DNA from: a virus
Lineage: Duplodnaviria > Heunggongvirae > Uroviricota > Caudoviricetes
Strand: one strand, 5' to 3'
IMG/VR virus record: IMGVR_UViG_2869970738_000009
Length of the DNA stretch: 33,980 nucleotides
This document shows, in pieces, positions 2,255 to 4,871 of this stretch. Numbering within the stretch: the first letter of the stretch is position 1; every line of letters starts with the position of its first letter. The position numbers and the translations under genes were made by a program. The notes under the pieces are model-generated. The model did no database searches. It was not told the origin of the DNA and saw nothing but the letters and a program-made list of their open reading frames with translations.

Positions 2255-3199
2255 TCATTGATTCACCTCCTGCCTGTCGTCCGGCATTCGCTCACTACAG
2301 CTTATCCAACCATCCGGAGTTACCGGAACTTGTGGAATGGCTGTCTGCTCTCGAACGTCATTAGGCGCTATAGGTTCTGCTGCCAACTGACTGGCATATT
2401 TGTTAATGGTAACGATAAGCTCTTGCTCAGCCTCATCCAGACAATCACCGATACCTCGCCTGTCACCGTCAAAATCATCGAAATCGGCACGAATCCTGGC
2501 AACCTTCAGGATTGCGGACAACACCTCACTAGGAATTGCCGGATAGTTGGTTGACGTTTCCGCGATTTCCCGAAAATTATTGGTTGACGAATTCTTGTTT
2601 TCCCGAAAGTTTCCGGACTGAAGCATGGCGGCGCGGCAGGCGTTCCATATTTCGGCAGCAATATCGCGCTCGCTATCGGTTAATTTGTACGTTAAAACAT
2701 AGCCAGAGAGCATTTCTACGTTTTCCGGAGTTGCTTCTTCAGGCACTACCGGTGCTGGCTCACGTATTACAGGCTCGCCCATGCGTGATTCTCCCTGCGC
2801 CTCTTTCACCATGTGGTCATTGATTTGCTCCAGTCGCCGAACGTGCTCATCAGCTTCAAGCGCTCGCCGTTTCCAGATGGACAGGTCTTCACGAGCGCCC
2901 TGATATGCGTCACCGTATTCGCCGTTAAATACTGGCGCTGGCGGGGCGATGCGTCCAAGCAACTTATTTACCTCTTTCGCCATCGCGTCATATTTATCTA
3001 AATAGCGATTAGCTTCTAAGCAGACTCGGTGCATCTGATCTGAGTTAACTCGTTTAACTGGATCTGCTTCCAATGATGCCAGTGCAATCCGTGCCAGTTC
3101 TTCCGCTTCTTCTGCTGGCAGTACAACGTTGCTACCCGGTCCGTATGTTTCGCGCCACTGCTTGATTGTCAGCAGTCGCCCTTTGGTAATAGTGATCAT
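2255..3199 (-). CDS. hypothetical phage early protein with a DUF551-like motif at the extreme C-terminus
   Basis: 314-aa ORF; C-terminus PDGWISCSERMPDD resembles the start of DUF551 and then stops, so possibly truncated; 4-bp overlap with the upstream gene. Confidence 0.45.
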   Translation of the reverse strand: MITITKGRLLTIKQWRETYGPGSNVVLPAEEAEELARIALASLEADPVKRVNSDQMHRVCLEANRYLDKYDAMAKEVNKLLGRIAPPAPVFNGEYGDAYQGAREDLSIWKRRALEADEHVRRLEQINDHMVKEAQGESRMGEPVIREPAPVVPEEATPENVEMLSGYVLTYKLTDSERDIAAEIWNACRAAMLQSGNFRENKNSSTNNFREIAETSTNYPAIPSEVLSAILKVARIRADFDDFDGDRRGIGDCLDEAEQELIVTINKYASQLAAEPIAPNDVREQTAIPQVPVTPDGWISCSERMPDDRQEVNQ

Positions 3200-3414
3200 G
3201 CCGCGTTTCCTTCTTTCTTATTAACAATCACACCGTCATATATTTCATTAAGGTGCCCTCTCAACTCCATGCGCCTTAATGCAGATAACATGTAATCGCA
3301 TTCAACCTGCTTATTCCCGGTAAATGGCTTATCGTCAGGATTACCCCAACAGCAATTACCCCTGGGCCATCCATGTACTTTCCGTACTCTTCCGTTAACA
3401 ACGTGAAGTAATCC
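3196..3414 (-). pseudogene. 3' part of a phage gene split by IS911 copy A
   Basis: Same frame as 4572-4871 once the IS and one copy of the TCC duplication are removed; joined product is about 170 aa. Confidence 0.6.
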
Positions 3415-3444
3415 TGAAGTGGTCAACAAAAACTGGCCACCGAG

Positions 3445-4170
3445 TTAGAGTTTTTCCAGTATCGATTTTCCGATTCGTTTGGGGTAACCCACCACCGGCA
3501 TCCATTCGTTCTTCAGACTCCTGAAGAAGCGTTCCATTGGGCTGTTATCCCAGCAGTTTCCGCGCCGGCTCATACTCTGTCTGATCTGGTATCGCCACAA
3601 TAACTGCCGGAACTGCCTGCTCGTATAATGACTGCCCTGATCGCTGTGGAACATCACCCCGCCGGGCTTACCACGGGTTTCCCATGCCATTTCCAGCGCT
3701 TTCATGGTGAGCCTGCTGTCCGGCGAGAACGACATGGCCCAGCCCACTGGTTTTCTTGCGAACAGGTCGAGAACAACGGCGAGGTACGCCCAGCGCTTAC
3801 CCGTCCAGATACAGGTCACATCACCGCACCACACCTGATTTGGCTCGGTCACGGCGAACTGCCTTTCAAGGTAGTTAGGGATAGCAACATGTTCATGACC
3901 ACCACGTTTATACCGGTGAGTCGGCTGCTGACAGCTGACCAGCCCCAGCTCTTTCATGAGCCTGCCAGCAAGCCAGCGTCCCATCTGGTAGCCTCTCCGG
4001 GTTGCCATTGTGGCGATGCTTCTTGCTCCGGCCGAACCATGGCTGATGCCATGTAGCTCAAGTACCTGACTGCGTAATACAGCCCGTCTGCCGTCTGGTT
4101 TTTCAGGACGGTTTTTCCTGTATCTGTAGCTGCTGCGATGAACCCCGAACACTTGGCAGAGTGTGACCAC
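3445..4170 (-). pseudogene. IS911 OrfB, altered C-terminus caused by the internal deletion
   Basis: Identical to copy B OrfB except one R/W difference up to ...NEWMPVVGY, then frameshifted tail [12 protein letters not shown]. Confidence 0.75.
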
Positions 4171-4196
4171 AGGATAATGCGTTCTGAGTTTCCCGA

Positions 4197-4499
4197 TTAT
4201 CGAGAACAGTTCAGGGAGTCTGACATCAAGAGCGCGGTAGCCTTTTTTAATATTTCATTCTCCATTTCAATGCGTTGTAGCTTTTTCCTCAGCTTACGTA
4301 TTTCGATTTGTTCTGGTGTTATCGGAGAGGCTTTTGGTGTTTTGCCCTGACGCTCATCACGCAGTTGTTTGACCCATCTTGTCATTGTGGAAAGGCCAAC
4401 ATCCATAGCTTTGGCGGCATCTGCCACCGTGTATTTCTGGTCAACAACCAGTTGAGCGGATTCGCGTTTAAACTCTGCGCTAAAATTTCTTTTTTTCAT
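4197..4499 (-). CDS. IS911 OrfA
   Basis: [21 protein letters not shown]...; identical to OrfA of copy B. Confidence 0.85.
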
Positions 4500-4571
4500 T
4501 GGAGCACCTGTGTTGTTCTGAGGTGAGCATATCACCTCTGTTCAGGTGGCCAAATTCAGTGTGCCACTTCA

Positions 4572-4871
4572 TCCCCAGCCGGGAGGTAAATCCTCAACTG
4601 AAATAATTTCCGGCTCACTAATAAAGAATCGCCAGTCGCCCATGCCAAGTGAGGGATTTTTACGGAAACGCTTTTTTCTATCTGCCAACAAGTCAGCACG
4701 AGAACACTTCGCCTCTATCAGGCATGATGCTGAATTTCTGAATCCCATAGCATCTGGCTGTTCTCCGGTACTGGTTACAGCAACAAAGCGGTCATGAAAG
4801 CAAACCTTGAACCCGTTGCGCTTAAGGAACTTGTACGCAATCTGACAGAGTTCGTGGTGTGTTAACGCCAT
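4572..4871 (-). pseudogene. 5' part of the IS911-split phage gene; PD-(D/E)xK-like nuclease motif
   Basis: Motif D..(x)..EAK (DAMGFRNSASCLIEAKCS); the stop codon TGA is supplied by the first bases of the IS911 terminus. Confidence 0.55.

Follow-up and report, generated by a model that had tools for sequence, protein, structure and literature searches.

The window analysed here is the whole 33,980-nucleotide stretch of the IMG/VR record IMGVR_UViG_2869970738_000009 and represents a Stx-phage-like lambdoid prophage adjoining mlrA. In this prophage, a copy of the insertion sequence (IS) IS911 (copy A) splits a 171-codon accessory gene. The uninterrupted gene can be rebuilt exactly, and profile comparisons predict that it encodes an MmcB-like nuclease of the PD-(D/E)xK fold. 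An IS911 insertion in an MmcB-like nuclease gene, inherited within a lineage and belonging to the neutral erosion of the prophage, is the reading favored here, with a probability of about 85%.

The proposed course of events is as follows. IS911 would have transposed into codon 100/101 of the 171-amino-acid (aa) accessory gene in the leftward early (pL) operon, using the usual copy-out/paste-in route that yields a 3-bp duplication. The host element would have been a lambdoid, Stx-phage-like prophage at mlrA (yehV) in a lineage labelled Shigella boydii. The gene product, a putative single-domain PD-(D/E)xK nuclease and MmcB-like (DUF1052) homologue, may have aided recombination or repair of phage DNA. 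A TGA provided by the IS end would leave the cell with only a 100-aa fragment, presumably inactive, and the DUF551 gene downstream would no longer be translationally coupled. The insertion would then have been inherited, copy A would have lost 92 bp, crippling its own transposase, and a second IS911 (copy B) would later have landed 814 bp away in an Ea22-like gene. The whole series would amount to neutral, IS-driven erosion of a prophage unable to excise.

Reconstruction of the interrupted gene

The sequence and its list of open reading frames (ORFs) show a minus-strand ORF interrupted by IS911 copy A (3415-4571, minus strand). The 5' part of the gene (4572..4871, minus strand; codons 1-100) includes D40 and E53-A-K55 and ends with GGA (Gly100), which is one copy of the target-site duplication. 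It matches nucleotides 1-300 of the intact Escherichia coli allele without a difference. The 3' part (3196..3411, minus strand) comprises codons 101-171 and the stop codon and is covered by a listed 77-aa ORF (3196-3429, minus strand). The present truncated product corresponds to a listed 100-aa ORF (4569-4871, minus strand). Its stop codon TGA (4569..4571, minus strand) consists of the three terminal bases of IS911 at its left end (5'-TGAAGTGG), so the truncated product contains no foreign residues.

The target-site duplication TCC is located at 3412..3414, on the side of the right terminal inverted repeat (IRR), and at 4572-4574, and identical flanks (GGA/GGA on the gene strand) were found in six other genomes. 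Because a 3-bp match alone has a chance of 1/64, the duplication is not decisive; the decisive evidence for an exact rebuild is identity to intact alleles. After removal of the element and one TCC, joining of 3196-3411 to 4572-4871 gave a 516-nt ORF of 171 aa, which was identical to the uninterrupted allele of E. coli SMBL (516/516 nt) and differed by 1 nt from the alleles of the E. coli RM10809-3 and TOE17 prophages. Like the window prophage, the latter two adjoin mlrA. The in-silico empty site (1526 bp) was aligned in one piece to the E. coli genomes with an intact allele (99.7-99.8%).

An initial annotation of this DNA had described an IS911 insertion that splits a phage gene, a flanking TCC duplication, a stop codon supplied by the IS terminus, a D...EAK motif and an original ORF that could be rebuilt exactly. 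Junctions, duplication and ORFs were all confirmed at the positions given above, the motif is D40 ... E53-A-K55 of the rebuilt protein, and the uninterrupted allele, which was to be sought in related prophages, is present in the three E. coli strains named.

Assignment of the gene product

Searches with the rebuilt protein yielded no Pfam, NCBIfam or PADLOC match, and the gathering score of Pfam PF06319 was not reached by the window protein. Single-sequence and first-profile searches of PDB sequences returned noise or a marginal match to 3dnx (E 0.48). A broader profile of 58 diverse family members matched the 3dnx sequence with E 1.1e-4, and comparison with 3dnx by hhalign gave a probability of 98% with 35% identity over 86 columns, which supports homology to this solved structure. 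In the alignment, the D of PD corresponds to the D of VDVMG, IEAK to IECK, and GWGLL to SGLL. Weak matches to PF06319 itself were obtained for 8 of the 58 distant relatives (best E 2.9e-4), and predicted viral structures named 'MmcB family DNA repair protein' matched with E 1e-4 to 1e-7.

The alpha-beta-beta-beta-alpha-beta core of the PD-(D/E)xK fold is present in the rebuilt protein. Among the 58 diverse members D40 is invariant, and E37, E53 and K55 are conserved to at least 90%. D40, E53 and K55 align with the D and the ECK of 3dnx, as in a D...(D/E)-x-K motif, and are probably the metal-binding or catalytic residues. The PD-(D/E)xK-like character proposed in the initial annotation is thus borne out by fold, motif and homology to 3dnx. 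By these comparisons the gene product is assigned as a predicted MmcB-like nuclease, from a sister family beyond the reach of the Pfam model. The 'unknown function' previously given to the gene is narrowed accordingly: the protein would be a Mg2+-dependent and probably structure- or lesion-directed DNA endonuclease.

With the MmcB-like/DUF1052 family (PF06319; 3dnx = SPO1766; Caulobacter MmcB) the protein shares the D ... IE(C/A)K-SR-DF-AD-K and GLL motifs. In contrast to that family, it is unrecognised by the Pfam model and has a longer C-terminus with its own invariant residues (K111, W122, KP128-129, KQ134-135, E137 and RR146-147). Members of the window family are located in accessory regions of Enterobacterales phages, whereas DUF1052 proteins are mostly alphaproteobacterial and chromosomal (PMC3424549). 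Caulobacter MmcB has been described as a PD-(D/E)xK endonuclease conferring protection from mitomycin C and cisplatin (PMC9578287). A role in resistance to mitomycin C or other crosslinkers, with SOS regulation, is known for the Caulobacter protein only; the window gene is part of a phage pL operon.

Alternatively, the protein could have a PD-(D/E)xK fold without being MmcB-like and act as an Hjc-type resolvase of Holliday junctions, or bind DNA without catalysis; this is considered unlikely. Archaeal Hjc (PF01870), a PD-(D/E)xK protein of similarly small size, has its catalytic residues in the same order, and weak, sub-threshold Hjc matches were obtained for family members (14/31 and 11/58). 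In addition, distant homologues are located between the recombination genes NinB (Orf) and NinG (Rap) in Morganella and Lonsdalea prophages. For the rebuilt protein itself, neither a Pfam match nor close structural similarity to Hjc was found; the profile and hhalign evidence favors the DUF1052/MmcB-like assignment, and conservation of the catalytic residues argues against a dead fold.

Consequences of the insertion and possible selection

The near-invariant GWGLL motif is interrupted by the IS between G100 and L101. In the AF2 model of the rebuilt protein, the insertion point lies between strand 80-85 and strand 100-105 (fourth and fifth beta-strands). D40, E53 and K55 are kept in the 100-aa fragment, but missing from it are two strands, the long helix at the C-terminus and more than ten invariant residues, including K111, W122, K128, P129, K134, Q135, E137, A144, R146 and R147. 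The fragment would be misfolded or inactive. Transcripts from pL would have to cross 1.16 kb of IS, and the insertion would uncouple translation of the DUF551 gene.

The left IS1 copy (1137-1909, inverted relative to the right copy) replaces 1186 bp, which in E. coli relatives encode the excisionase and the N-terminus of the integrase. The prophage is thereby locked in place and can no longer excise, so that neutral decay is the simplest view of the loss of a further accessory gene. That the insertion was instead selected, with loss of the nuclease or polar silencing of downstream pL genes benefiting the host (e.g. by removal of a toxic nuclease), is improbable. The insertion is fixed in the lineage, and other IS elements in the Ea22-like genes of loci L006 and L007 form a local cluster, in that three independent IS insertions have hit these neighboring genes (L006, L007, and L010 with the window); the region is perhaps costly. 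However, clustering of IS elements in non-essential DNA is expected under drift. The genomes are moreover IS-saturated, and the prophage is without int and xis and carries IS1, IS2-like, IS110-family and IS66-family elements. Furthermore, a lysogen that has kept a cI-like repressor holds its pL genes repressed.

Age, distribution and order of events

The initial annotation regarded the disruption as recent and precisely datable, and neither description stood up. By exact search, the IS/gene junction was absent from 5426 complete E. coli genomes, and neither this junction nor that of the 92-bp deletion was found among GTDB species representatives, a set that does not include the lineage. A protein look-up retrieved the exact 100-aa truncated protein, which exists only if the IS sits exactly at this site, from 141 blocks of a public assembly collection, seven of them with contigs >1 Mb. 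At NCBI the protein is named 'hypothetical protein [Shigella boydii]' (90 contigs).

Six complete genomes carry the IS at the identical position with identical flanks. The element at this site has a length of 1248-1249 bp in L006, L007 and L009, and is present in the 1157-bp form in L005, L008 and L010, in which the 92-bp deletion is identical. Since the deletion occurs in three of the six genomes at the same site, it arose after the insertion and can be used as a lineage marker. Positions 1-10871 of the window are 100% identical to CP026795.1 (L010). Copy B occurs only in CP026795.1 and the window, and its site is empty in L005, L008, L009, L011 and L012. Two missense substitutions in orfB of copy A (4119 and 4182) are present in L010 and absent from copy B and from L005-L009, which comprise every related locus with an element aligned to copy A. 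The order of events is thus insertion of copy A, followed by the 92-bp deletion in copy A, followed by insertion of copy B and the two point changes in copy A.

The insertion is young on the substitution clock but is a lineage marker, inherited by the Shigella boydii lineage. Zero substitutions in the two gene halves give only a loose upper bound on its age and no absolute date, so that only the order of events follows. A very recent, strain-private insertion with a date readable from the sequence is therefore contradicted already and has very little left in its favor: the duplication is perfect, both halves match the intact allele without a substitution and the junction was not found in the two genome sets searched, whereas the same junctions and truncated protein occur in many genomes, the insertion predates the shared deletion, the private point changes and copy B, and identity over 516 nt bounds the age only loosely.

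Evidence for a single gene

Two PHROG families, phrog_9263 and phrog_631, match residues 3-171 and 1-170 of the rebuilt protein, respectively. A homologue search yielded 308 proteins, many with a length of 160-176 aa and covering 93-100% of the query; the 171-aa homologues span 100% of the rebuilt protein. They originate from Klebsiella, Cronobacter, Pectobacterium, Serratia, Morganella, Providencia and others and are all labelled 'hypothetical'. A profile search of 1.84 billion cluster representatives (E up to 0.001) retrieved 3291 clusters at 50% identity, and among the matches listed, most span the whole profile. Shigella phage POCJ13 has the gene as a single annotated coding sequence (CDS) of 516 nt, gp75, between a DUF551 gene and an Ea22-like gene, and the 171-aa protein is on record in GenBank, UniRef and phage entries. 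The AF2 model of the rebuilt protein consists of a single domain, of which 131 residues align to 3dnx. Homologues and PHROG families hence span both halves, and the outcome that the initial annotation had named as fatal to its claim, halves aligning to different genes in relatives, was not encountered.

The notion that the halves are unrelated ORFs, joined in frame by coincidence of a 3-bp repeat, is already refuted: RefSeq (PGAP) does annotate the intact allele as a 'frameshifted' pseudogene instead of one gene in three E. coli genomes, alone or beside a 110-aa CDS, but the 171-aa ORF is open and uninterrupted in all three loci, and the recorded 171-aa protein, the thousands of homologues covering both halves and the one-domain model aligned to 3dnx stand against it. 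The 'frameshifted' call on the intact allele is treated as an annotation artefact.

The PGAP calls (pseudogene, or pseudogene plus 110-aa CDS) are located at 6819-7012 in L001, 6833-7011 in L002 and 3497-4012 in L003, and the pseudogene calls stop at, or a few codons from, an A-run at codons 65-67. At these codons of the rebuilt gene (~4675-4681, minus strand) lies an A AAA AAG heptamer, the phase of which fits -1 frameshifting. A -1 shift there would give a 70-aa product, and the same motif is used by IS911 itself. Programmed frameshifting in the rebuilt gene was rejected because the heptamer shows no nucleotide-level conservation in distant homologues; it is probably a by-product of conserved R-K-K residues.

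Structure of the IS911 elements

Copy A (3415..4571, minus strand; 1157 bp) has the same transcriptional orientation as the disrupted gene and is without 92 bp near the 3' end of orfB. Alignment of both ends placed the left terminal inverted repeat (IRL) at 4536..4571 (minus strand) and the IRR at 3415..3450 (plus strand). The repeats are imperfect, with a length of ~36 bp and ~25 matches in the first 37 positions. The IRR begins with TGAAGTGGTCAAC at 3415 and the IRL finishes with GTGCCACTTCA at 4571; in longer form, the right end reads TGAAGTGGTCAACAAAAACTGGCCACC from 3415, and the reverse complement of the left end, GGTGGCCAAATTCAGTGTGCCACTTCA, stops at 4571. The element thus has the TG...CA imperfect terminal repeats of IS911, with TGAAGTGG termini at both ends.

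The orfA of copy A (4197..4499, minus strand; 100 aa, MKKRNF...) lies within a listed ORF at 4197-4535. Near 4240-4250 the sequence TTA AAA AAG is in phase and contains the A AAA AAG frameshift heptamer of orfA, and orfB follows in the -1 frame. From translations and pairwise comparison, the orfB frame was assigned to 3445..4250 (minus strand), of which 3445-4170 is in the ORF list. This is the coding arrangement of IS911, with an altered orfB C-terminus in copy A: the deletion shifts the frame, and 12 foreign residues replace the last 47 native residues.

Copy B (5386..6634, plus strand; 1249 bp) is full length, inverted relative to copy A and flanked by a CAG duplication (5383-5385 and 6635-6637). 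It shows 99.8% identity to elements that PGAP names IS911. Apart from 2 mismatches and one 92-bp gap, copy A is identical to copy B, and the elements are thus identified, in agreement with the initial annotation, as a full-length (copy B) and a truncated (copy A) member of IS911. IS911 generates target duplications of 3-4 bp (PMC2909936), a range into which both TCC (copy A) and CAG (copy B) fall. For both copies, empty sites with a single copy of the duplication were seen in relatives. The internal deletion junction of copy A is at 3484..3485, relative to 6474-6565 of copy B. In copy B two GGTGGGTTAC repeats (6464-6473 and 6555-6564) bracket the counterpart of the lost stretch, and the deletion in copy A also removed one C of a C5 run.

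Both copies therefore resemble IS911 of Shigella and E. coli in their 3-bp target duplications, TG...CA ends, orfA/orfB organization and A AAA AAG motif, from which copy A departs by the 92-bp deletion, the replaced transposase C-terminus and the two missense changes. At 1157 bp, copy A has arisen by deletion, has a damaged transposase and is not a full IS911 of ~1250 bp. Its ends are intact, and it could probably move only with transposase from another copy.

The idea that recombination between the inverted IS911 copies had flipped the 814-bp segment was rejected, since each copy has its own matching duplication. Rejected along with it was a similar inversion of the 8.5 kb that separate the two IS1 copies, which also lie in inverted orientation; colinearity of the window with relatives without copy B and without the second IS1 counts against both inversions. 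A second, IR-targeted insertion mode has been reported for IS911. The target DNA at 3404-3409 reads TGAAGT, 5 bp from the IRR end TGAAGTGG and in the same orientation. Targeted insertion was rejected because of this direct orientation, which is not the inverted IR-IR geometry of targeted events, and the TGAAGT beside the IRR is probably due to chance.

Operon and prophage setting

Downstream in the same operon lies a gene for a 314-aa protein starting with DUF551 (2255..3199, minus strand), the ATG of which overlaps the TGA of the disrupted gene (ATGA). Upstream, a fragment of an Ead/Ea22-like gene (4873..5376, minus strand; 5' end cut by copy B) ends with a stop codon 1 nt ahead of the disrupted gene's start. 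The disrupted gene is encoded on the cI/int strand, as expected of a pL-operon accessory gene, and its designation as an early-left gene in the initial annotation agrees with this position.

Small size, tight packing, translational coupling and mosaic occurrence are shared with other early lambdoid 'ea'/nin accessory genes (Ea22, DUF551/EaA, NinB and NinG). In contrast to these, the gene has been given neither a name nor a phenotype in lambda or its relatives, and it is located in the left arm of E. coli/Shigella phages but in the nin region of Morganella and Lonsdalea prophages, where homologues lie between NinB and NinG (L013 5001-5498 and L015 5001-5513). The gene is therefore regarded as a mobile accessory module that changes arm between phages.

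The prophage further encodes the cI-like repressor (12147-12878) and a DNA methylase. A tRNA Met/Arg/Arg cluster (22949-24070) and a nanS-p-like esterase gene (24070-25950) are arranged as in Stx-converting phages. No toxin ORF was found when stx was looked for between the tRNA cluster and the esterase gene, and this segment carries only a 118-aa minus-strand ORF. The right IS1 (10478-11250, inverted relative to the left copy) is absent from most related genomes. An IS3-family (IS2-like) element is also present, and the right end of the window contains transposase genes of the IS110 family (30123-31298) and the IS66 family (31591-33183). The IS110-family element is also found in related genomes, outside the prophage on its mlrA side.

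Interpretation and implications

Several points weigh against a lineage-inherited, neutral insertion in an MmcB-like nuclease gene. The window protein matches neither PF06319, even with E values up to 10, nor any NCBIfam model, and nuclease activity and substrate are deduced from fold and motif only. The 100-aa fragment keeps the catalytic residues and might have residual or dominant-negative activity. Neutrality of the insertion is an assumption, and the species label was taken from the source names of the protein and not from a taxonomy record for CP026795.1.

Erosion of Shigella prophages by IS elements is well established. The insertion described here is a case of ordinary IS-driven decay, and the genomes that carry it are already public. 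What is new is modest and consists of the MmcB-like assignment of a large unannotated phage family and of the ordered IS events. It is a rather improbable extension that this very large phage-borne MmcB-like family (>3000 clusters at 50% identity), to which no Pfam model extends, performs a distinct job and that its IS-mediated losses in Shigella were selected. If true, this job could be, for example, the cutting of crosslinked or branched DNA in phage recombination, or the countering of host defence.

In RefSeq the intact allele is often wrongly annotated as a pseudogene with a frameshift. With the assignment proposed here, a widespread 'hypothetical' phage protein can be labelled as a predicted MmcB-like PD-(D/E)xK nuclease, and a family of thousands of clusters deserves a profile of its own. 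For the S. boydii lineage, the nested events (insertion A, 92-bp deletion and insertion B) provide clean, ordered typing markers.

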